A stretch of DNA of 64,000 nucleotides from Phycisphaerales bacterium (GCA_035443945.1 DAOMNQ010000004.1:2877-66876), one strand, 5' to 3'; numbered from the stretch's first letter, positions 1,928 through 62,906 are shown. Numbers and translations are program-made. The notes: generated from the letters alone by a model not told the origin.

Positions 1928-4237
1928 GTGTGTGGAGCAACCATGAGCATCAGAGGCATGTCGGGCTGGCTGGCCGCGGGACTCGCCCTCGTTCTCACCG
2001 GCACGCTCTTCCCGACGCCCGTCGCGTTTGCGCAGCAGCAGCACACGCTTGCGGAGTCCCGCGCGACCGCGATTGACGACGCTTGGTCAGCGCGTGTGTG
2101 GGCACAGGCACGCGAGAAGGGCGAGGGCGCCCTGCTCGGCCTGGTCTCGGACATTCCGGCTGAGGGCGTCGAAGAGCCGATCGCCCGGCTTCGCGACTCG
2201 TTCGAACTCTTCGAGGCGAATCTCGGAAAGCGGAACGCGGAGCGCGTCGCGCGGATCGAGGCGGTCCGGTCGGAGATCGAGGCGGCGATCCGGCCCGCGG
2301 AGGGCGTTCCGACCGACCTGGACCTGAGCAAGGCGATGCGTCTTGCGGCGGAGTGGCAGATGCTGGTGGGCGACGCCGCGGCCGTGGTGCGTGAGCCGAT
2401 CGTCGCGGACCTGATTTCGATGGCGGCATCGGCCGCGCAGGGCGCGGAGGCCCGCGCCGACTGGCTCGTCTCCAGCGAGTTGTTCCACCGCCTCAACGTG
2501 CTGACCGAGGAGGTGGACGGGCGCTATTTGTCCGATCTTGACCGCCAGAACGACCGGCTGGCGATGATCCGTCTCTATGTCCCTGAGAAGTTGTGGGATC
2601 TCCGCAACGCGCGCCGCCTGATGGAACTGGACACGCCGCTACCCCCCTACAACGCGACGGCGGACGGCTGGTCGCAGAAACTGAACGGAATCAGCCGGTA
2701 CCTCGTGATCCGCGCCCTGCTCAAGGCTGCGCAATCGAACGTTGAAGGCGTCACGACGTCATCGCTGCTCGACGGCGGGCTTGAAGCCGTCCGAACCCTG
2801 GCCACGACGGAGTGCCTGAGCGACGCCTTCCCCGGCATCGCCGACCCGACGGCTCGCGAGGCGATGGTGAAGTTCGTCGACCAGACGCGAGTCGAACTGC
2901 GTCAGAGCAATCGTGCGCTCGGGGTCCGAGACATCACCGCGCTCATCGAGTCCCTGCTCTCGACAAACCAGTTGTCCGTGCGGATCCCGGAGGAGGCGCT
3001 GCTCCACGAGTTCGGCAACGGGGCGATGGGCCGGCTGGATGAGTACTCATCCATCATCTGGCCCGACGAGGTCCGCCGATTCCAGCGCAACACTCGCGGC
3101 TCGTTCGTCGGCATCGGCGTGCAGATCCACCTCGACGAGGCGCAGCGCCTCGCCGTCGTGACCCCGCTCGAGGGCACCCCCGCGCAACGGGCCGGCATCC
3201 GCGCGGGCGACGTCATCAGCAAGGTGGACGGCGTCTCGACCGTGGGGTTCTCGCTCGATCAGGCGGTGGACGTCATCACCGGTCCTCGCGGCACGAAGGT
3301 GACGCTCACCATCGAACGCGAGGCCGACGACCAGACGCAGGAGATCGAGTTCGTCATCACCCGCGACGTCATCGACGTGAAGAGCGTCAAGGGGTGGAAG
3401 CGGGGCGAGCGGGAGGACGACTGGGAGTGGTTCATCGACCGCGAGGCCGGGATCGGCTACGTTCGGCTCACGCAGTTCCAGGAGAACACGACGGCGGAAC
3501 TCGAGCGTGCCATCGTGCGGATGCGCGCCGACGGACTGCGCGGCCTCATCCTTGATCTGCGATTCAACCCCGGCGGGCTTCTGAACGAGGCGGTGGGCGT
3601 CGCGAGCCAGTTCATCGAGACGGGGCGAGTCGTCACCACCGAGGCCGCCGACGGCTCGGTCGCCGGGGTCGAGACCGCGCTGGGCGGCGCGACGCTCTCG
3701 GACATCCCTGTTGTGGTGCTCATCAACGAAGGCTCGGCCTCGGCCAGCGAGATCGTCGCCGGCGCGATCCAGGACTACGCCCGCGCCGGCACGATCGACG
3801 CCATGGTGGTCGGTGAGCGCTCTTTCGGCAAGGGAAGCGTCCAGAACGTCTGGCCGCTGCCGGTTCAGGCGGACGCGATGCTCAAACTGACCACGCAGTA
3901 CTACAAACTCCCGGCCGGTCGCCTTATCCACCGGCAGCGCCATCCCGGCGAGACGCGGTGGGGAATCGAACCGGACGTTACCGTGTCCATGCTCCCCTCA
4001 CAGATCGAGGCCTCGCTCCTCCTCCGCCAGAAGGCCGACCTGCTGGTACTCGACGAGAACGGCGCGGCCAAGCGTGACGACGCCGAGCCGCCTCCGGACC
4101 CTGACGACCTCCTCGCTGAGGGCATCGACCTCCAGCTCAACACCGCACTGGTTCTCCTTCAGAGCCGCACCCTGGCGCCGACCTCCTCGCGGACCACGAT
4201 GAAGCAGGTGGGCGAGCCGACCTCGGCCGTGCGCTGA
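1928..4237 (+). CDS. ctpA: S41 family C-terminal processing peptidase with PDZ domain
   Basis: PDZ segment GIGVQIHLDEAQRLAVVTPLEGTPAQRAGIRAGDVISKVDG. S41 core motifs LILDLRFNPGGLLNEAV, VVLINEGSASASEIVAGAIQD and GERSFGKGSVQ. N-terminal signal-like MSIRGMSGWLAAGLALVL, so an alternative start at 1943 is possible. Confidence 0.85.
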   Translation: MCGATMSIRGMSGWLAAGLALVLTGTLFPTPVAFAQQQHTLAESRATAIDDAWSARVWAQAREKGEGALLGLVSDIPAEGVEEPIARLRDSFELFEANLGKRNAERVARIEAVRSEIEAAIRPAEGVPTDLDLSKAMRLAAEWQMLVGDAAAVVREPIVADLISMAASAAQGAEARADWLVSSELFHRLNVLTEEVDGRYLSDLDRQNDRLAMIRLYVPEKLWDLRNARRLMELDTPLPPYNATADGWSQKLNGISRYLVIRALLKAAQSNVEGVTTSSLLDGGLEAVRTLATTECLSDAFPGIADPTAREAMVKFVDQTRVELRQSNRALGVRDITALIESLLSTNQLSVRIPEEALLHEFGNGAMGRLDEYSSIIWPDEVRRFQRNTRGSFVGIGVQIHLDEAQRLAVVTPLEGTPAQRAGIRAGDVISKVDGVSTVGFSLDQAVDVITGPRGTKVTLTIEREADDQTQEIEFVITRDVIDVKSVKGWKRGEREDDWEWFIDREAGIGYVRLTQFQENTTAELERAIVRMRADGLRGLILDLRFNPGGLLNEAVGVASQFIETGRVVTTEAADGSVAGVETALGGATLSDIPVVVLINEGSASASEIVAGAIQDYARAGTIDAMVVGERSFGKGSVQNVWPLPVQADAMLKLTTQYYKLPAGRLIHRQRHPGETRWGIEPDVTVSMLPSQIEASLLLRQKADLLVLDENGAAKRDDAEPPPDPDDLLAEGIDLQLNTALVLLQSRTLAPTSSRTTMKQVGEPTSAVR

Positions 4238-6273: not shown

Positions 6274-7362
6274 ATGACCACCGCCACCGCACCCCTTCCC
6301 CCCAGCGCACGCCTTGTCGAGCATCCCGCGCTGCCCGGCGGGTTCGCCGTGCCGGACTTTGACGCGGAACTCCCGGCGCGAGAGGGCGACCGCGTCATCC
6401 AGTTCCGCGAGGCCCTGCGCGAGGCCATGTCGGAAGAGATGCGCCGCGATCCTCGCGTCTTCCTCATGGGCGAGGAGGTCGCGGAGTACAACGGCGCGTA
6501 CAAGGTTTCCCAGGGCATGCTGGACGAGTTCGGCCCGAAGCGCATCATCGACACGCCCATCTCCGAGAACGGGTTCGCGGGCCTGGGCATCGCCGCCGCC
6601 ATGTACGGTCTGCGCCCCATTATCGAGTTCATGTCGTGGTCCTTCAGCCTTGTGGCCGCGGACCAGATTCTGAACAACGCCCCGAAGATGCTGTACATGT
6701 CCGGCGGCCAATGGGGCTGCCCGGTCGTGTTTCGGGGCAACAACGGGGCGGGAGGGCAGCTCGGCTCGACCCATTCCTGGTGCGTCGAGGGCCTGTATGC
6801 CAACGTGCCGGGGATGAAGATCGCTGTCCCCAGCAACCCGTACGATGCCAAGGGGATGCTCAAGACCGCGATCCTCGACCCCGATCCGGTCTTCTTCCTT
6901 GAGTCGGAGCGTATGCTCGGGGACAAGGCGCACGTGCCGGAGGAGGAGTACTACATCCCGTTCGGCCGCGCCCGACTGGCCCGCGAGGGCGACGCCTGCA
7001 CGCTCGTCTCATTCGGGCGGCCGGTGAACTTCTGCCTTGAGGCCGCTGAGACGCTCGCCGCCGAGGGCGTCGAGTGCGACGTGCTCGACATGCGGACTGT
7101 CCGGCCGCTCGACCTTGAGTCCGTCGTCCGCAGCCTGCGCAGGACGAACCGGGTCGTCGTGGTGGACCAGTCGTGGCCCTTCGGCGGCGTGGCGAGCGAG
7201 GTCATCGCCCAGATCACGGAGAAGGCGTTCGACTGGCTCGATGCTCCCCCCGCCCGGGTGAACACCGACGACGTGCCGACGCCGTACGCGAAGAGCATGG
7301 AGGCGGCGTACCTGCCGAACGCGGAGAAGATTGCGGCGGCGGTAAAGAGGACACTGGCGTGA
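6274..7362 (+). CDS. pdhB: pyruvate dehydrogenase E1 component, beta subunit
   Basis: VIQFREALREAMSEEMRRDPRVFLMGEEVAEYNGAYKVSQGMLDEFGPKRIIDTPISENGFAGLGIAAAMYGLRPIIEFM, the classical E1-beta sequence. The start is uncertain: in-frame candidates are 6241, ATG 6274 and GTG 6349. Confidence 0.9.
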   Translation: MTTATAPLPPSARLVEHPALPGGFAVPDFDAELPAREGDRVIQFREALREAMSEEMRRDPRVFLMGEEVAEYNGAYKVSQGMLDEFGPKRIIDTPISENGFAGLGIAAAMYGLRPIIEFMSWSFSLVAADQILNNAPKMLYMSGGQWGCPVVFRGNNGAGGQLGSTHSWCVEGLYANVPGMKIAVPSNPYDAKGMLKTAILDPDPVFFLESERMLGDKAHVPEEEYYIPFGRARLAREGDACTLVSFGRPVNFCLEAAETLAAEGVECDVLDMRTVRPLDLESVVRSLRRTNRVVVVDQSWPFGGVASEVIAQITEKAFDWLDAPPARVNTDDVPTPYAKSMEAAYLPNAEKIAAAVKRTLA

Positions 7363-7796
7363 CTCATAGAGCAGCAGAGCAGCAGAGCGGAGAAGCAGCA
7401 GAGGCGTGCCGGGGCGCACCTGTCGCCAGGCGGTCGCGGCTCGATCCCGCCCTCATCGCCCGTGTTGAGGCCTTCTCGCATCGCGTCGCGGACGTCGCCG
7501 CGGCCCTCGATCATGACAGGCGACCTCGCCGGATCATCGACCAGGTGCTCGCCTCCGGCACATCCGTCGCTGCGAACGTATTTGAAGCGGACGAAGCCCT
7601 CAGCCGTGCCGACTTCTGCAAGACCCTTGGCATCGCCGTGAAGGAACTAAGCGAAACCCGTTACTGGATCAGGTTCACTGGCGCACGCGGCTGGATTGTC
7701 CCTGAACGGCTGGTCGGACTGGAAGACGAGTCCACCCGGTTGGGGCGTATCCTTGGGGCGATGAGCGCCCGCGTGCGCCGCAAGGACCGCACCTGA
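7359..7796 (+). CDS. four-helix-bundle protein (23S rRNA intervening-sequence protein family, TIGR02436/PF05635-like)
   Basis: IIDQVLASGTSVAANVFEADEALSRADFCKTLGIAVKELSETRYWIRF matches the family core (Q.L.S.TS..AN..EA....S..DF..K..IA.KE..ET.YW). The only canonical in-frame start after pdhB is GTG 7359, which overlaps the pdhB stop (GTGA). Confidence 0.7.
   Translation: MTHRAAEQQSGEAAEACRGAPVARRSRLDPALIARVEAFSHRVADVAAALDHDRRPRRIIDQVLASGTSVAANVFEADEALSRADFCKTLGIAVKELSETRYWIRFTGARGWIVPERLVGLEDESTRLGRILGAMSARVRRKDRT
7366..7405. repeat. 5' arm of inverted repeat: five tandem octamers, consensus GCAGAGCA
   Basis: Read directly from the sequence: ATAGAGCA GCAGAGCA GCAGAGCG GAGAAGCA GCAGAGGC. Confidence 0.85.
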
Positions 7797-7813
7797 ACCG
7801 GATTCGGCTCCAC

Positions 7814-7854
7814 CATCTGCTGCTCTGCTGCTTTGCTGATCTGCTGCTCTGAGG
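7814..7854. repeat. 3' arm of inverted repeat: five tandem octamers, consensus GCTCTGCT (complement of the 5' arm)
   Basis: Read directly from the sequence: CATCTGCT GCTCTGCT GCTTTGCT GATCTGCT GCTCTGAG G. Aligned by hand against the 5' arm, about 30 of 37 positions are complementary, with the outermost positions pairing. The arm ends 8 nt before the pdhC ATG. Confidence 0.85.
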
Positions 7855-7862
7855 CCCCTCCC

Positions 7863-9230
7863 ATGCCGATCGAGATCACCATGCCCCGTTTGTCGGACAC
7901 GATGGAGCAGGGCACCGTTGTGAAGTGGTACGTGAAGGAGGGCGACGCGGTCTCCTCCGGTGACGTGATCGCGGACATCGAGACCGACAAGGCCACGATG
8001 GAACTGCAGTCCTTCGACGAGGGCACGATCGCAAGGCTCTCGGTGGACGAAGGCAAGGCCGTCGCCGTCGGGACGGTCATCGCCTTGCTGGCGGGCGAGG
8101 GCGAGGATGCCGCGGCCGTCAAGGGGGACGAGAGTACAACCTCGAGCGCGAACGCTCGATCCTCCAAGTCCGCCGGTGCCGACGGTGAGCCTCCGTCGAG
8201 TGAAGGGTCGAAACGGGCCACCGCGACCGCGACCTCGGCCCCCGACTCGTCCCGCACCGATCGCAACGGCACCCGCGTCTTCGCCTCTCCGCTCGCCCGG
8301 AAGATCGCCGAGGAGCGCGGGGTGGACCTCGCGTCGATCGAAGGCACGGGGCCATCCGGGCGCATCACGCGCAAGGACGTTGAGGCTGCCACCCCGGCGG
8401 CGGCTCCCCGCCGTCCTGCCGCGGATGCTCAGGCCGAGCGGATGGTCGCGGCGAGGGTGCCTTCGGCGCCGCTCCCGGAACTCGCCGCGGCCCGTCTCGA
8501 GGACCGCACCGTCACGCTCTCGAACATGCGGGCCACGATCGCCCGCCGGCTTGTCGAGAGCAAGACGACCGTCCCCCACTACCAGGTCACGGTGAGCGCG
8601 CGCATGGATGCGTTGCTGTCGCTGCGCGAGCAACTCAACGAGCAACTGGAGCCGCAGGGCGTGAAACTGAGCGTGAACGACTTCCTCGTCCGCGCCTGCG
8701 CCCTCGCGATGCACCAGCACCCGTTCGTGAACGCCTCGTGGGTCGAGGCGAAGGGGGGCGATGCACCCGCGATCCGTCTGCATGGGCGTGTGAACGTCGG
8801 GGTCGCGATCGCGCTGCCGGCCGAGAGGGGGGGCGGCCTCGTCGTCGGTGTCATCCGCGACGCCGACCGAGTGGGTCTGCGCCAGATTTCCGACGAGACC
8901 CGCCGCCTGGCCTCCAAGGCGCGCGAGAAGGGTCTGAGCGTCGAGGAGATGAGCGACTCGACGTTCACCATTTCGAATCTGGGCATGTTCGGTGTGGATC
9001 ACTTCACGGCGATCATCAACCCACCGAACGCCGCCATCCTGGCCGTCGGACGCGCGATCGAACGCCCGGCCATCGAGCAGGACGATGACGGCGAGGCCCG
9101 CATCTCCGTGGTCCGTGAGATGGCCATGACGATGTCCAGCGACCATCGCATCATCGACGGCGCGATGGCGGCCCAGTATCTCGGCACGGTCAAGCAGATG
9201 CTCGAGCGCCCGGCCTCGCTGCTGGTCTGA
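7863..9230 (+). CDS. pdhC: dihydrolipoamide acetyltransferase (pyruvate dehydrogenase E2)
   Basis: Lipoyl domain MPIEITMPRLSDTMEQGTVVKWYVKEGDAVSSGDVIADIETDKATMEL. Subunit-binding domain ASPLARKIAEERGVDLASIEGTGPSGRITRKDV. Catalytic SSDHRIIDGAMAAQYL. I start at ATG 7863 rather than the track's 7833. Confidence 0.92.
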   Translation: MPIEITMPRLSDTMEQGTVVKWYVKEGDAVSSGDVIADIETDKATMELQSFDEGTIARLSVDEGKAVAVGTVIALLAGEGEDAAAVKGDESTTSSANARSSKSAGADGEPPSSEGSKRATATATSAPDSSRTDRNGTRVFASPLARKIAEERGVDLASIEGTGPSGRITRKDVEAATPAAAPRRPAADAQAERMVAARVPSAPLPELAAARLEDRTVTLSNMRATIARRLVESKTTVPHYQVTVSARMDALLSLREQLNEQLEPQGVKLSVNDFLVRACALAMHQHPFVNASWVEAKGGDAPAIRLHGRVNVGVAIALPAERGGGLVVGVIRDADRVGLRQISDETRRLASKAREKGLSVEEMSDSTFTISNLGMFGVDHFTAIINPPNAAILAVGRAIERPAIEQDDDGEARISVVREMAMTMSSDHRIIDGAMAAQYLGTVKQMLERPASLLV

Positions 9231-57255: not shown

Positions 57256-57263
57256 AATGTCGC

Positions 57264-59552
57264 ATGACCGCGCCCGCCGGCTTCGAACTCGTCAGCGATT
57301 TCGCGCCGACGGGCGATCAGCCCGGCGCGATCGAGGGCGTCTGCCGCGACCTCCGCGCCGGCTCGCGCCACGTCTGCCTGCTCGGCGCGACCGGCACCGG
57401 CAAGACCTTCACCATGGCGAACGTCATCGCTGCGCTTCAACGACCCACGCTCATCATCAGCCACAACAAGACCCTCGCGGCGCAGTTGTACGAGGAACTG
57501 CGCCAGTTTTTCCCCCGCAACAGCGTAAACTATTTCGTCTCGTACTACGACTTCTACCAGCCCGAGGCCTACATCCCCGCCCGCGACATCTACATCGAGA
57601 AGGACGCCAGCCGCAACGACGACCTCGACATGCTGCGCCTGGCCGCCACCAGCAGCATCCTCAGCCGGCGCGACACCATCGTCGTCGCGTCGGTCTCCTG
57701 CATCTTCGGCCTTGGGTCGCCCGAGGCGTACGCGCAGCGGGTGCTGACGATCACCCGCGGCAGCCGCATCAACCGGCGCGACTTCTTCCTCGCCCTCAAC
57801 GCCATGCAGTACCAGCGCGTCGACGTCGAGTTCAAACGCGGCTCGTACCGCGTCCGAGGCGACGCCGTCGAGGTCTGGCCCGCCTACGAGCGCTTCGCCG
57901 TCCGCGTCGAACTCTTCGGCGACGAGATCGACCGCGTGGACCTGATCGACCCGACCGGCGGCGAACTGCTCGCCCAGGAGCGGCAGTTCTTCCTGTATCC
58001 CGCCGTTCACTATGTGATGCCCGAGGAGGAGATCAAGCCCATCCTCGACTCGATCCGGGCCGACCTCGACGACCGCGTGCTCGAACTGCGTTCGCAGGGC
58101 AGACTCCTCGAAGCCCAGCGCCTGCTCGCCCGCACCAAGTACGACCTCGAGATGATCGAGGAGGTCGGCTATTGCTCCGGCATCGAGAACTACTCCCGCT
58201 ACTTCGACGGCCGCGCCCCCGGCGAGCGCCCGTTCACGCTGCTCGACTACTTCGAGCGGGCACCGCGGCGGGATGGAGAGTGGCGAAGTGGCAAAGCGGC
58301 AGAGTGGCAAAGCGATACCGCGAACATCGCCGCCGAGCCCCACTCCGCCACTCTGCCACCCTGCCACTCTGCCACTTCTGCTTCAAGCGACTGGCTCCTC
58401 ATCATCGACGAATCGCACGTTACCGTCCCGCAGGTGCGGGCGATGTTCAATGGCGACCGCGCCCGCAAGGAAGTGCTCGTCGAGCACGGTTTCCGCCTTC
58501 CCGCCGCCCTCGACAACCGTCCGCTGCGGTTCGAGGAGTTCGAGTCGATGATTCCCCAGGTCGTGTTCGTCAGCGCGACGCCGGGGCCGTACGAACTCGG
58601 CCTGACCGGCGGCGCGGTGCACGAGCAGGTCATCCGCCCGACCGGCCTGCTCGACCCCGAGATCGAGGTCCGCCCCGCCTCGAACCAGGTGCAGGACCTG
58701 CTCGGACGCTGCCGCGAGCGTGCCGCCTCGGGGGAGCGTGTGCTCATCACCGCCCTCACCAAGCGCCTCTGCGAGGACCTCACGGGCTACCTCGACCAGC
58801 AGGGCCTGCGCGTGCGCTACCTGCACAGCGAGATCGACACGCTCGAGCGTGTGGGCATCCTCACCGACCTGCGGCTGGGCGAGTTCGACGTGCTCGTCGG
58901 CGTGAACCTGCTGCGCGAGGGCTTGGACCTGCCCGAGGTCTCGCTCGTGTGCATCCTTGACGCCGACAAGGAGGGCTTCCTCCGCTCAGCCACGAGCCTC
59001 ATCCAGCAGATGGGCCGCGCCGCCCGCAACGTGAACGCGAAGGTCGTTATGTACGCCGACTCCGTTACACCCGCCATGCAGGCCGCCATCGACGAGACCG
59101 AACGCCGCCGCGCCAGGCAGATCGCCTTCAACCGCGAACACGGCGTCACTCCGACCACCATCCGCAAGGCCATCCGCCGCGGGCTGGAGAGCGAACTCAA
59201 GGCGAGGCGCACGGCCCGCGAGGCCGCCCTCACCAGCGAGCGGCCCCTCGACGCCGCCACGCTGCTCGCCGAGATCGAAGGCGAGATGCGCGAAGCGGCC
59301 GAGTCGCTGAACTTCGAGCGCGCCGCCGAACTGCGCGACCAGGCCGCCACCGTGCGACGACTCATCGAGGAGCACGGCGGGCACGCCCCGGGACTGCCGA
59401 CCGGCGACGGACCGGACGAACCGCTTCTGCTCCGACGCGCCGAGGTCGAGGAAGCCCTGCGGGCGAAGGGCGGCACGCGACGGCGCAAGCCCGGCATGGC
59501 CGGCGTGCACCCGCGCGCGAAGGAACGCCGCACGCGCCGCAAGCCCCGCTGA
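57264..59552 (+). CDS. uvrB: excinuclease ABC subunit B (carrying a 44-codon in-frame insertion)
   Basis: FELVSDFAPTGDQPGAI, GATGTGKTFTMANVI, FVSYYDFYQPEAYIP, IIDESHVTVPQ, GFRLPAALDNRPL, DADKEGFLRS and the UVR domain LNFERAAELRDQ. Compared with my memory of E. coli UvrB (FDYLPADGLLVVDESH), there is extra sequence between YFE and DWLLIIDESH. Confidence 0.93.
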   Translation: MTAPAGFELVSDFAPTGDQPGAIEGVCRDLRAGSRHVCLLGATGTGKTFTMANVIAALQRPTLIISHNKTLAAQLYEELRQFFPRNSVNYFVSYYDFYQPEAYIPARDIYIEKDASRNDDLDMLRLAATSSILSRRDTIVVASVSCIFGLGSPEAYAQRVLTITRGSRINRRDFFLALNAMQYQRVDVEFKRGSYRVRGDAVEVWPAYERFAVRVELFGDEIDRVDLIDPTGGELLAQERQFFLYPAVHYVMPEEEIKPILDSIRADLDDRVLELRSQGRLLEAQRLLARTKYDLEMIEEVGYCSGIENYSRYFDGRAPGERPFTLLDYFERAPRRDGEWRSGKAAEWQSDTANIAAEPHSATLPPCHSATSASSDWLLIIDESHVTVPQVRAMFNGDRARKEVLVEHGFRLPAALDNRPLRFEEFESMIPQVVFVSATPGPYELGLTGGAVHEQVIRPTGLLDPEIEVRPASNQVQDLLGRCRERAASGERVLITALTKRLCEDLTGYLDQQGLRVRYLHSEIDTLERVGILTDLRLGEFDVLVGVNLLREGLDLPEVSLVCILDADKEGFLRSATSLIQQMGRAARNVNAKVVMYADSVTPAMQAAIDETERRRARQIAFNREHGVTPTTIRKAIRRGLESELKARRTAREAALTSERPLDAATLLAEIEGEMREAAESLNFERAAELRDQAATVRRLIEEHGGHAPGLPTGDGPDEPLLLRRAEVEEALRAKGGTRRRKPGMAGVHPRAKERRTRRKPR
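58275..58381. repeat. palindromic element inside uvrB: five GCAGAGTG-type octamers, 26-nt loop, five complementary CACTCTGC-type octamers
   Basis: 5' arm 58275-58314: GGAGAGTG GCGAAGTG GCAAAGCG GCAGAGTG GCAAAGCG. Loop ATACCGCGAACATCGCCGCCGAGCCC. 3' arm 58341-58381: CACTCCGC CACTCTGC CACCCTGC CACTCTGC CACTTCTGC. About 30 of 40 positions are complementary by hand alignment. Confidence 0.85.

Positions 59553-59792: not shown

Positions 59793-62906
<3,114 letters not shown>

Follow-up and report, generated by a model that had tools for sequence, protein, structure and literature searches.

The 64,000-nt stretch of Phycisphaerales DNA analysed here (the window) carries two loci at which inverted arrays of short tandem units enclose a loop. 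One is an in-frame insert within uvrB with a loop that holds no ORF, and the other is a cassette between pdhB and the E2 gene with a loop that encodes a four-helix-bundle (4HB) protein. The features of the two loci, in window coordinates, are as follows.

57261-59552, plus strand: uvrB coding sequence (ORF list), with its likely start at ATG 57261 and the frame open back to 57141.
58257-58388, plus strand: 44-codon in-frame insert RAPRRDGEWRSGKAAEWQSDTANIAAEPHSATLPPCHSATSASS, an ORF-less hairpin element (unaligned to PDB UvrB; AlphaFold2).
58273-58312, plus strand: 5' arm of the uvrB hairpin, five purine-rich tandem octamers, ATGGAGAG TGGCGAAG TGGCAAAG CGGCAGAG TGGCAAAG (Tandem Repeats Finder, period 8).
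58313-58339, plus strand: loop of 27 nt with a small internal hairpin (fold and sequence).
58340-58381, plus strand: 3' arm of the uvrB hairpin, five pyrimidine-rich tandem octamers, CCACTCCG CCACTCTG CCACCCTG CCACTCTG CCACTTCT GC, complementary to the 5' arm (Tandem Repeats Finder).
7359-7796, plus strand: 4HB ORF (TIGR02436, E = 2.7e-17; PF05635 homologues).
7363-7403, plus strand: 5' arm of the pdh cassette, AGAGCAGC units (Tandem Repeats Finder), beginning 1 nt past the pdhB stop codon TGA at 7360-7362.
7814-7852, plus strand: 3' arm of the pdh cassette, TCTGCTGC units (Tandem Repeats Finder), ending at the GAGG ribosome-binding site of the E2 gene (ATG 7863).

The host gene of the insert matches PDB UvrB at E = 6e-242 and has 120 homologues at 64-94% identity, and its product is identical to NCBI HRQ71691.1. 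Aligned with Bacillus caldotenax UvrB (PDB 2FDC), residues 332-375 (44 aa) of the window protein find no counterpart and take the place of one residue between F329 and D331; the insert lies between LLDYF and LIIDESH. We confirmed that its 132 nt (58257-58388) contain no stop codon and keep the uvrB frame, as a first-pass annotation of this DNA had stated. The octamer periodicity described there, about five tandem octamers followed by about five complementary ones, also holds computationally. Tandem Repeats Finder reports a period of 8 at both 58279-58312 (AGTGGCAA, 4.2 copies) and 58340-58381 (CCACTCTG, 5.1 copies), and period-8 autocorrelation reaches at least 26/32 at two places only in the 64 kb, the uvrB insert and the pdh cassette 3' arm (7816-7855). 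Allowing up to 3 mismatches, a dimer of the uvrB unit matches the window seven times, always within 58274-58373, compared with 0.25 matches expected from shuffled sequence and seven matches reached in 0 of 100 shuffles. The arms pair over 31 nt at 81% and 28 nt at 86% complementarity in an inverted-repeat search, and the loop between them is present as annotated, its length being 27 nt as delimited here instead of 26 nt. As RNA, the hairpin folds at -68.8 kcal/mol (z = -3.75). For the encoded peptide, which includes the stretches DGEWR and SGKAAEWQSDTANIAAEPHSATLPPCHSATSASSDWL, AlphaFold2 predicts a disordered loop without secondary structure (pLDDT 27-31).

At the pdh locus, the sole in-frame start of the 4HB ORF is GTG 7359, which overlaps the pdhB stop codon and reads through the 5' arm; the part with homology to other proteins begins at about 7431. 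The folded cassette RNA closes a long-range stem over a loop of about 400 nt (z = -4.1). A 145-aa protein, P0121, is 100% identical to the window 4HB protein, no defence-system model in PADLOC matched it, and no phage record was found to encode a relative.

The pdh cassette belongs to a widespread family. Inverted tandem arrays of 7- or 8-mers, called where flanking inverted arrays scored 33 or more, bracket 67 of 77 related 4HB (PF05635/TIGR02436) genes versus 3 of 231 shifted controls, with a period of 7 in 40 loci and 8 in 25. Cassette sites include pdh, RNR and cas10-cmr3 operons, and at 26 pdh-site loci, the window's among them, the arrays span the whole interval that separates the stop codon of the preceding gene from the ribosome-binding site of the following one, giving spacers of 443-507 nt. 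Loop lengths are bimodal, either 13-63 nt (empty) or 376-470 nt (4HB), and at one locus (L063) an empty intergenic hairpin shares the GGAAAGT unit with a 4HB cassette about 900 nt away. Such arrays also accompany 4HB genes in other phyla, at 5 of 5 cyanobacterial and Gemmatimonadota plasmid loci and at 2 metagenome loci. We rejected a tie between unit type and genomic site, as different sites have units in common and one site hosts many units.

The uvrB site is occupied throughout the Phycisphaerales. All 116 orthologues in which the site could be delimited carry an insert of 25-106 aa, stop-free and in frame in every case and hypervariable in length and sequence. Among the matches listed, metagenome UvrBs from outside the Phycisphaerales with a readable site, a sample of mostly distant proteins used as an outgroup for the short loop, nearly all have exactly 5 residues (PxDFL), bearing out the roughly five residues that the first-pass annotation had given for E. 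coli UvrB. Occupancy of the same site in 116 of 116 orthologues contradicts the MITE-like derivative or excision scar proposed there, in the sense of a recent insertion or fresh scar in this genome. Sequence inspection revealed no direct repeat indicative of a target-site duplication at 58257/58388 or at the pdh cassette junctions, and the 64-kb window contains no second copy of the uvrB unit. Palindromic DNA is not universal among the inserts: tandem-octamer inverted arms occur in 9 of 11 orthologues read as DNA, which were chosen partly for palindromic-looking peptides, and a degenerate back-translation test of limited sensitivity, in which DNA-confirmed hairpins scored as low as z = 1.5-2.6, finds about a quarter of the inserts able to encode a palindrome.

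The units themselves differ among orthologues (GGCAGAGT, GGCGAAGT, GCGACGAA, GAGACGAA, GGCACCGA, GGGACGAA, GGGATCAA). A small set of unit families recurs across distant UvrB clades, the GGCAGAGT unit among them, and within a single clade of 95-97% core identity there are about three different alleles that cannot be aligned with one another. Among the sampled loci, the dimer of the window unit occurs only in uvrB inserts and at one other place. The relative L001 lacks three 3'-arm units present in the window, leaving 5+2 units with the frame kept, and P0227 carries the same short allele. This difference of exactly 3 units (24 nt), together with the disordered loop predicted by AlphaFold2, supports the earlier proposal that the element is tolerated because it is in frame. 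In one relative, L006, a Y1 transposase gene adjoins uvrB on its upstream side.

Homology between arms connects the uvrB inserts directly to the 4HB cassettes. The uvrB arm of L010 matches the arm of a class-B cassette, L060, at 41 of 47 nt, non-repeat ends included (z = 21.8), and the uvrB arms of L007, L008 and L004 match cassette arms at z = 19.6, 17.2 and 8.9, respectively. This direct link exists only for alleles in other genomes; the window allele is unmatched, its GGCAGAGT unit finding no cassette with matching arms in the sample (z = 0.4-3.1). Array-bracketing of 67 of 77 4HB genes, bimodal loop lengths and the 41/47-nt arm homology support the first-pass view that an empty uvrB copy and an ORF-bearing pdh copy represent one kind of element. 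This support does not come from the GCAGAG hexamer common to both window arm sets, which the first-pass annotation had pointed out and which is weak evidence alone (local alignment z = 3.1).

Cassettes at a fixed site are exchanged as wholes. Close same-site pairs are bimodal, having either all of the cassette in common or all of it different: L066 and L069 have flanks 86-91% identical and 4HB proteins 100% identical, whereas between the window and L069, which has the closest pdh flanks sampled, flanks are 93% identical, 4HB proteins only 52% identical and arms unrelated. The genome with these closest flanks nevertheless has the same uvrB unit as the window, so the two window loci are not a matched pair, and the GCAGAG hexamer is rejected as a sign of one. 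Whole-cassette replacement at fixed sites indicates that the cassettes are probably mobile, to judge from sequence comparison, and replacement could proceed by homologous exchange through the conserved flanks rather than by transposition; no transposase was seen beside the elements. The first-pass interpretation is partly supported overall. Hallmarks of transposition are absent.

We conclude that the uvrB segment is probably an ORF-less member of a hairpin family resembling intervening sequences (IVSs), carried as a tolerated passenger. In this family, an arm is made of tandem units of 7 or 8 nt, 4-5 in number, and is the reverse complement of its partner. The full form holds a PF05635/TIGR02436 4HB gene inside the loop and, as at pdhB-pdhC, exactly fills the operon gap that separates the stop codon of one gene from the ribosome-binding site of its successor; by analogy with IVSs, its transcript may be processed by RNase III. 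The empty hairpin in uvrB occupies, in frame, a permissive junction immediately ahead of the strand bearing helicase motif II (DESH), where it would be transcribed and, judging from the sequence, probably translated into a disordered, hydrophilic surface loop of roughly 44 residues. Extra sequence has probably been present at this site since the ancestor of this Phycisphaerales clade, and hairpin alleles turn over there by three routes: gains or losses of units, which survive only three at a time (24 nt); concerted change of the unit itself; and replacement by alleles with arms homologous to 4HB-cassette arms elsewhere. UvrB itself would not need the hairpin, which may persist as a DNA-level passenger while its sense-strand RNA pairing erodes. 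Its dispensability is suggested by the small share of palindrome-capable inserts (22-30 of 116), by the unbalanced 5+2 units of L001, and by the inserts of L002 and L003, which fold no better than shuffled sequence.

We consider it unlikely that the segment is instead an ordinary lineage-specific, low-complexity surface loop. Under this explanation, with extra sequence already present at the permissive point, replication slippage made the octamers and template switching within the quasi-palindrome kept the arms complementary; likeness to the cassettes then stems from a common mutational process and common constraints (no stop in any of the three frames, a purine-rich sense strand) and owes nothing to descent or transfer. 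Occupancy of the site in every delimited orthologue, its hypervariability, the clean 3-unit indel between the window and L001 and the lack of palindromic potential in about three quarters of orthologue inserts all agree with such a loop. So do several arrays that change in place or have no partner: one arm of the L002 insert is partly homogenised to a new unit, a heptamer array in uvrA (60693-60728) switches unit between close relatives without a partner arm, and SMC and uppP genes contain in-frame octamer arrays without partners. The L002 and uvrA cases imply that in-place evolution could explain part of the turnover, and the swapping of old alleles by homologous recombination fits the presence of GGCAGAGT in distant clades as well as mobility does. 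However, the identity between L010 and L060 reaches the non-repeat arm ends, which is hard to obtain by convergence, and the short-loop hairpins are tied to the cassettes by the bimodal loop lengths. The recurrence of unit families in distant clades, the unalignable alleles within the 95-97% clade and the L063 empty hairpin with the unit of its neighbouring cassette also argue against an ordinary loop.

A nucleic-acid structure selected within uvrB, with the peptide as a by-product, appears quite improbable to us, whether as an RNase III or ribosome-pausing hairpin tuning expression, as an antisense RNA or as a DNA hairpin acting in replication or repair. Such selection would accord with arm complementarity that is kept in many lineages despite differing units, resembling covariation, with fold z-scores between -3 and -8 for the sense strand and as low as -10.5 for the antisense strand, which folds better in 9 of 11 uvrB inserts, and with the related hairpin or cassette found directly 5' of uvrB in L005 and L132. 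Yet most orthologues, among them the near relatives L001, L002 and L003, lack the hairpin or have it in decayed form, and its sense-strand mismatches are mainly disruptive A.C, not G.U (28 versus 6 in uvrB, compared with 51 versus 61 in intergenic cassettes; Fisher p = 1.5e-4). This bias is consistent with translation of the insert and would be expected if T-rich hydrophobic codons, or a stable stem in the mRNA, were selected against. G.U wobble as a sign of sense-RNA selection was rejected, as the 4HB cassettes have no strand bias in arm mismatches and the uvrB bias is opposite. An Rfam scan of the whole window at the gathering threshold returned two tRNAs only, with no rRNA and no family at the hairpin, and reading of the sequence around the hairpin revealed neither a run of T nor a promoter context for a terminator or antisense gene.

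We give almost no credence to removal of the segment before or during protein synthesis, by translational bypassing or in an intein- or intron-like manner, to leave a mature UvrB with the ancestral short loop: although the stem would juxtapose the ancestral flanks (...P and DWL...) and the window insert has Asp codons close to each end, orthologues do not conserve matching codons at the flanks, the insert has no intein or intron splicing motifs and no stop codon after a take-off site, its 44-aa low-complexity peptide matched no NCBIfam family, and frame and stop-free state, neither of which would be needed were the segment skipped, are kept in 116 of 116 delimited orthologues through length changes that preserve the frame.

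Among known systems, the IVS-like family finds its closest counterpart in the IVSs of 23S rRNA, including those of Coxiella burnetii and the Leptospira helix-45 IVS with an S23p ORF (PMC4990558). In these too, the insertion is looped out of the host RNA by a long stem between inverted repeats at its termini, sizes are similar (428-444 nt in Coxiella, compared with 443-507 nt for the pdh-site spacers), and occurrence is sporadic, at fixed sites and with evidence of horizontal exchange (PMC4990558). The loop ORFs belong to the same protein family, PF05635, and a long enclosing stem is formed both by the uvrB arms and by the pdh cassette, the latter carrying the optional PF05635/S23p ORF. Short IVS forms without an ORF exist (Salmonella-type IVS), and the 27-nt uvrB loop is ORF-less like some IVSs. 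Unlike IVSs in helix 9, 25 or 45 of 23S rRNA, the elements described here reside in mRNA, in the pdhB-E2 operon spacer and in the uvrB coding sequence, their stems are tandem 7/8-nt units that vary in sequence by locus, and the uvrB copy would have to be translated.

Rickettsia palindromic elements (RPEs), of about 100-150 nt, lie in frame in essential genes and are tolerated as translated surface segments. The uvrB insert is likewise an in-frame palindrome in a protein-coding gene and is probably retained in the product. RPEs differ in forming many dispersed copies of a few consensus sequences per genome, whereas here the unit differs from locus to locus and the 64-kb window holds one copy; in addition, RPE arms lack the tandem-array structure, no ORF-bearing form of RPE is known, and the host phylum is different. 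MITEs and REP/BIME sequences (RAYT Y1-mobilised) are short non-coding inverted-repeat elements without their own transposase, and REP/BIMEs lie in operon spacers, forming mRNA stem-loops. Inverted arms are also present here, but as tandem arrays, with neither target-site duplications nor near-identical dispersed copies, and the uvrB copy lies inside a coding sequence. Integron cassettes combine a small promoterless ORF with a palindrome (attC) conserved in structure and variable in sequence, and are exchanged at fixed sites. In contrast, the cassettes described here have inverted repeats on both sides of the ORF and occur one per site, between housekeeping genes; no integron integrase or attI site was seen.

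The short tandem heptamer repeats (STRR) of heterocystous cyanobacteria and the TAACTGA repeats of Beggiatoaceae, Cyanobacteria and Bacteroidetes resemble the arms in their 2-6 tandem 7-nt units, mostly intergenic and many ending just 5' of a start codon, and in a distribution that is patchy across phyla, by a mechanism that is not known (PMC4679880). They are described as direct repeats, essentially without an inverted partner, and have not been linked to 4HB genes (PMC4679880), whereas the arrays described here are paired in inverted orientation and enclose either a 4HB ORF or a short loop. Array-bracketed 4HB genes are nevertheless present on Nostoc, Trichormus and Picosynechococcus plasmids, so part of the STRR phenomenon may be this architecture. 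Between PF05635 and Avd, a protein of diversity-generating retroelements, the resemblance is at family level only (PMC10053308); the window 4HB gene has pdhB and the E2 gene as its immediate neighbours, and the pdh cassette holds no reverse-transcriptase ORF. Avd is pentameric, and the arms described here have 4-5 units.

We tentatively propose, as possible rather than probable, a multi-phylum class of 'looped-out cassettes', in which an Avd/IVS-type 4HB gene within a tandem-unit hairpin would lie between the stop codon and ribosome-binding site of housekeeping operons and would be exchanged whole, arms and ORF, at fixed sites by a structure-directed mechanism. The ORF-less hairpin would colonise coding sequences in frame, as in uvrB, and 23S rRNA IVSs and part of the cyanobacterial STRR heptamers would be special cases. 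The class is apparently undescribed: the literature searched, which covered few subscription journals, yielded no account of inverted tandem arrays on either side of 4HB genes.

If this architecture holds, ORF-bearing 23S rRNA IVSs, the abundant functionless PF05635 'four helix bundle protein' genes and unexplained tandem heptamers, until now treated separately, are one kind of element. Annotation is affected as well: 4HB ORFs predicted by gene callers run on through the arms, and assemblies seem to break at 4HB cassettes. The 'IVS protein' appears CRISPR-associated in large screens, for which one explanation may be the cassette lying between cas10 and cmr3. The uvrB and pdhB-pdhC sites, conserved and with several alleles in close relatives, are usable loci for studying the exchange mechanism. 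Alongside the Rickettsia palindromic elements, the uvrB insert would provide a second, independent example of an essential enzyme gaining residues from structured selfish DNA.

We confirmed that uvrB is interrupted in frame by an octamer-array palindrome, as the first-pass annotation had proposed. The source genome is a metagenome-assembled Phycisphaerales genome of 68% G+C, and NCBI HRQ71691.1, from a 78,043-bp contig, is identical to the window UvrB.

57261-59552, + strand: uvrB, with uvrA next downstream
58257-58388, + strand: 44 extra codons in uvrB, bounded by ...TLLDYFE and DWLLIIDESH

Tandem Repeats Finder placed period-8 arrays at 58279-58312 and 58340-58381, an inverted-repeat search recovered arms of 28-31 nt with 81-86% complementarity, and the insert RNA folded at -68.8 kcal/mol (z = -3.75). 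Alignment to solved structures agreed, with UvrB residues 332-375 forming an insertion in place of one residue between F329 and D331 of B. caldotenax UvrB. The octamer periodicity also held in an autocorrelation scan of the whole window, where period 8 peaked at two places only, the uvrB insert and the pdh cassette, and all seven matches in the window to a dimer of the uvrB-insert unit (<=3 mismatches; 0.25 expected) lay within the insert. The figure of about five residues given for E. coli UvrB was borne out for ordinary UvrBs: among the matches listed, nearly all unrelated metagenome UvrB genes with a readable site have exactly five, PxDFL.

An insert of 25-106 aa occupies this site in all 116 orthologues with a delimitable site among the best 120 homologues (Phycisphaerales or Planctomycetota MAG proteins, 64-94% identity), usually bounded by D[YF]APP...RPN[YF]RDWL. 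The ORF-less copy is therefore not a recent MITE-type insertion; its site has tolerated extra sequence ever since the clade arose. We read the DNA of ten orthologues, a selection biased to palindromic-looking peptides. Nine of 11 loci including the window share a layout of purine-rich tandem-octamer 5' arm, short loop and complementary 3' arm, with units that differ by locus.

Units of the uvrB hairpin in the window and its orthologues (L handles)
Window, L001: GGCAGAGT
L005: GGCAAAGT
L006: GGCGAAGT
L007: GCGACGAA
L008: GAGACGAA; 4+4 units, almost perfect
L009: GGCACCGA
L010: GGGACGAA / GGCACGAA
L004: GGGATCAR
L002, L003: decayed

Because of this bias, we asked for all 116 inserts whether any back-translation could form an inverted repeat, and obtained z >= 3 in 22 and z >= 2 in 30. 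Judged from sequence, roughly a quarter of lineages would carry the hairpin; this is a minimum, since several hairpins confirmed as DNA escape the test. Compared with the window, L001 (UvrB 94% identical) has a clean 24-nt gap that removes three 3'-arm units and leaves 5+2, a short allele also found in a second relative. Unit types are scattered on the UvrB tree (insert masked), with distant clades sharing a type, and the window's own clade (95-97% core identity) holds about three alleles that cannot be aligned with one another, between flanks that remain ~90-95% identical as far as ERAP and DWL. At L006, which has a strong uvrB hairpin, a Y1 transposase gene (IS200/IS605- or RAYT-type, PF01797; 4846-5289) adjoins uvrB upstream.

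The pdh cassette encloses, between arrays at 7363-7403 and 7814-7852, an ORF for a four-helix-bundle (4HB) protein (TIGR02436 / PF05635). A profile search of species-representative genomes with this protein yielded 80 loci, nearly all from Phycisphaerales, Phycisphaeraceae or Planctomycetota MAGs. An inverted repeat scoring >= 33 spans the 4HB gene in 67 of the 77 loci with enough flank (shifted-position controls, 3/231), with an arm period of 7 in 40 loci and 8 in 25. The 5' arm is A-rich on the sense strand (42% A, against a background of 67% G+C), and arm units vary by locus (AAATGGC, AAAGCTC, AAAGCGA, ACATGGC, AGATGGCC, AAATCAGC, GGAAAGT, GACAGTG and others). About half of the loci share the window's place between pdhB and the E2 gene; across 26 of these, window included, the 5' arm starts at the pdhB stop codon or overlaps it (TAAagcgaaaagcg...), the 3' arm terminates at the E2 ribosome-binding site (...ctttGAGGtttcctATG) and the spacer measures 443-507 nt. 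Folded at minimum energy, the window cassette closes the long-range stem between its arms. At its 5' end (7359-7440) the window's 4HB ORF lacks ATG, GTG or TTG at the conserved start position, where relatives read MGRL...; the sole in-frame candidate is GTG 7359, overlapping the pdhB stop (GTGA), so translation would be coupled to pdhB and run through the 5' octamer arm, which the NCBI annotation (145 aa) likewise includes. Alternatively, the gene is decaying. In the homologue match table, most close 4HB homologues lie on contigs of only ~0.7-2 kb, as expected if assemblies break at repetitive or polymorphic cassettes.

Empty and ORF-bearing forms fall into two loop classes. In 708 kb of Phycisphaerales sequence, inverted 7/8-mer array pairs have loops of 13-63 nt (10 pairs) or 376-470 nt (33 pairs), with only two outside both ranges; the short-loop cases are the uvrB inserts, a hairpin just 5' of uvrB in L005, one at L079 and an intergenic one at L063, whose GGAAAGT unit is that of a 4HB cassette ~900 nt off. 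This 1.5-kb stretch (L063 2910-4415) also includes a uppP-like gene whose reading frame carries an octamer array (CCATCMAG, 3824-3856); the empty hairpin directly follows the stop codon of this gene. Another conserved site (L060, L019, L016) is occupied by class B, a second type of 4HB protein that is closer to classical IVS proteins; its cassettes have arm units GGGACGAA / GGCACGAA or GGGATCAA / GGGGTCAA, the same families as uvrB units. Between the L010 uvrB 5' arm and the cassette arm of L060, 41/47 positions agree (z = 21.8), including non-repeat sequence at both arm ends, and the uvrB arms of L007 (z = 19.6), L008 (z = 17.2) and L004 (z = 8.9) also match cassette arms. For the window's uvrB allele the sample contained no such cassette partner, the best match being its own pdh arms (z = 3.1). 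The idea that the uvrB and pdh loci belong to one family stands on comparative grounds, through loops and arm homology elsewhere, and falls as a matched pair within the window. We regard the uvrB insert as probably, though far from certainly, an ORF-less member of an IVS-like, hairpin-bounded family with tandem-unit stems.

The main rival is that the uvrB hairpin arose in place through slippage and template switching. These processes certainly contribute, as seen in L002 and in a heptamer array of uvrA, but they do not account for uvrB arms that are homologous to arms of cassettes elsewhere. The uvrA array is in frame, with ~4 copies of CAGGACT and no complementary arm (window 60693-60728); it recurs in relatives with the same unit (L003 13393-13430) or with CCCCAAG/CCTCAAG (L001 13398-13432, L004 5205-5246), a change of unit among genomes with UvrB identities of 94-97%. 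The SMC C-terminal tail likewise carries ~11 in-frame tandem octamers without a partner arm (L008 8740-8827, L009 6960-7044), with units GGCACGGA / GGCACGAA of a family common to some uvrB hairpins.

Cassettes at fixed sites are replaced as wholes. L069, on the same contig as L001 and with the flanks closest to the window's among the sampled loci, carries heptamer AAAGCGA arms at the pdhB-E2 position (2949-3459), compared with octamer AGAGCAGC in the window (7360-7863); L066 has more distant flanks, yet its 4HB protein is identical to that of L069.

Pairs of cassettes at the pdh site
Window vs L069: flank DNA 93%, identical up to CTGAGGCCCCTCCCATG; 4HB 52%; unrelated heptamer arms
L066 vs L069: flank DNA 86-91%; 4HB 100%; similar arms

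Among same-site pairs with flanks >= 85% identical, cassettes are either wholly shared (similar arms, 4HB 78-100%) or wholly different (dissimilar arms, 4HB ~52%); an ORF therefore moves along with its arms, and several old alleles persist at a site. The nearest 4HB relative is at the same site in 46/81 cases (23 ± 4 by chance), and median 4HB identity, 52.7%, is equal within and between sites. Exchange would proceed either by homologous recombination through conserved flanks or by a structure-directed mechanism.

The insert is stop-free and in frame in 116/116 delimitable orthologues and keeps frame through length changes, a pattern that points to conventional translation. AlphaFold2 (UvrB mean pLDDT 73; insert 27-31, without secondary structure) predicts a disordered loop right before the motif II strand, at what we take to be the junction of UvrB domains 1b and 1a. 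Arm mismatches in uvrB are mostly a 5'-arm A opposite a 3'-arm C (28 vs 6 G.U), for which reason 9/11 hairpins fold better as the antisense strand than as mRNA; intergenic cassettes lack this bias (51 A.C vs 61 G.U; Fisher p = 1.5e-4). Selection for RNA structure is a less simple account of this pattern, and the simplest reading is a coding-strand filter against T-rich hydrophobic codons and/or a stable mRNA stem. Since most orthologues either lack the hairpin or have it in decayed form, it would be a tolerated passenger.

The architecture extends beyond Phycisphaerales: heptamer arms accompany the 4HB genes of two metagenome loci from outside the order, one of them with its cassette immediately 5' of uvrB, and inverted tandem 7/8-mers flank on both sides all five 4HB genes inspected on plasmids (Nostoc punctiforme, Trichormus variabilis, Nostoc edaphicum, Picosynechococcus and Gemmatirosa), filling the gaps to neighbours that include hypothetical genes, RNR subunits, and cas10 and cmr3. 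On the N. edaphicum plasmid (L175) the cassette lies between two ribonucleotide reductase subunit genes, and on that of Picosynechococcus sp. PCC 7003 (L173) between cas10/cmr2 and cmr3 of a type III-B CRISPR operon. In an unrelated bacterium (L132 1835-2260) a 4HB cassette sits directly 5' of the uvrB start codon, the position of the empty AGAGAAC heptamer hairpin of L005 (9859-9975); uvrB seems to attract such elements repeatedly, or this is coincidence.

In size, layout and ORF family, the pdh cassette resembles the Coxiella 23S rRNA intervening sequence (IVS), an element of 428-444 nt that RNase III excises and that combines an S23p ORF with a terminal stem of 28 bp (PMC4990558). Intergenic tandem heptamers of unexplained origin occur in Beggiatoaceae, Cyanobacteria and Bacteroidetes (PMC4679880), and PF05635 has been described as Avd-like (PMC10053308) and as CRISPR-associated (PMC10910872); a link between 4HB genes and inverted arrays was not found in the literature searched. 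The uvrB hairpin is akin to rRNA intervening sequences and Rickettsia-type in-frame palindromes, and its interest lies in the wider cassette architecture that it exposes. The cassette within a CRISPR operon may be one reason that the '23S rRNA IVS protein' scores as CRISPR-associated in large screens.
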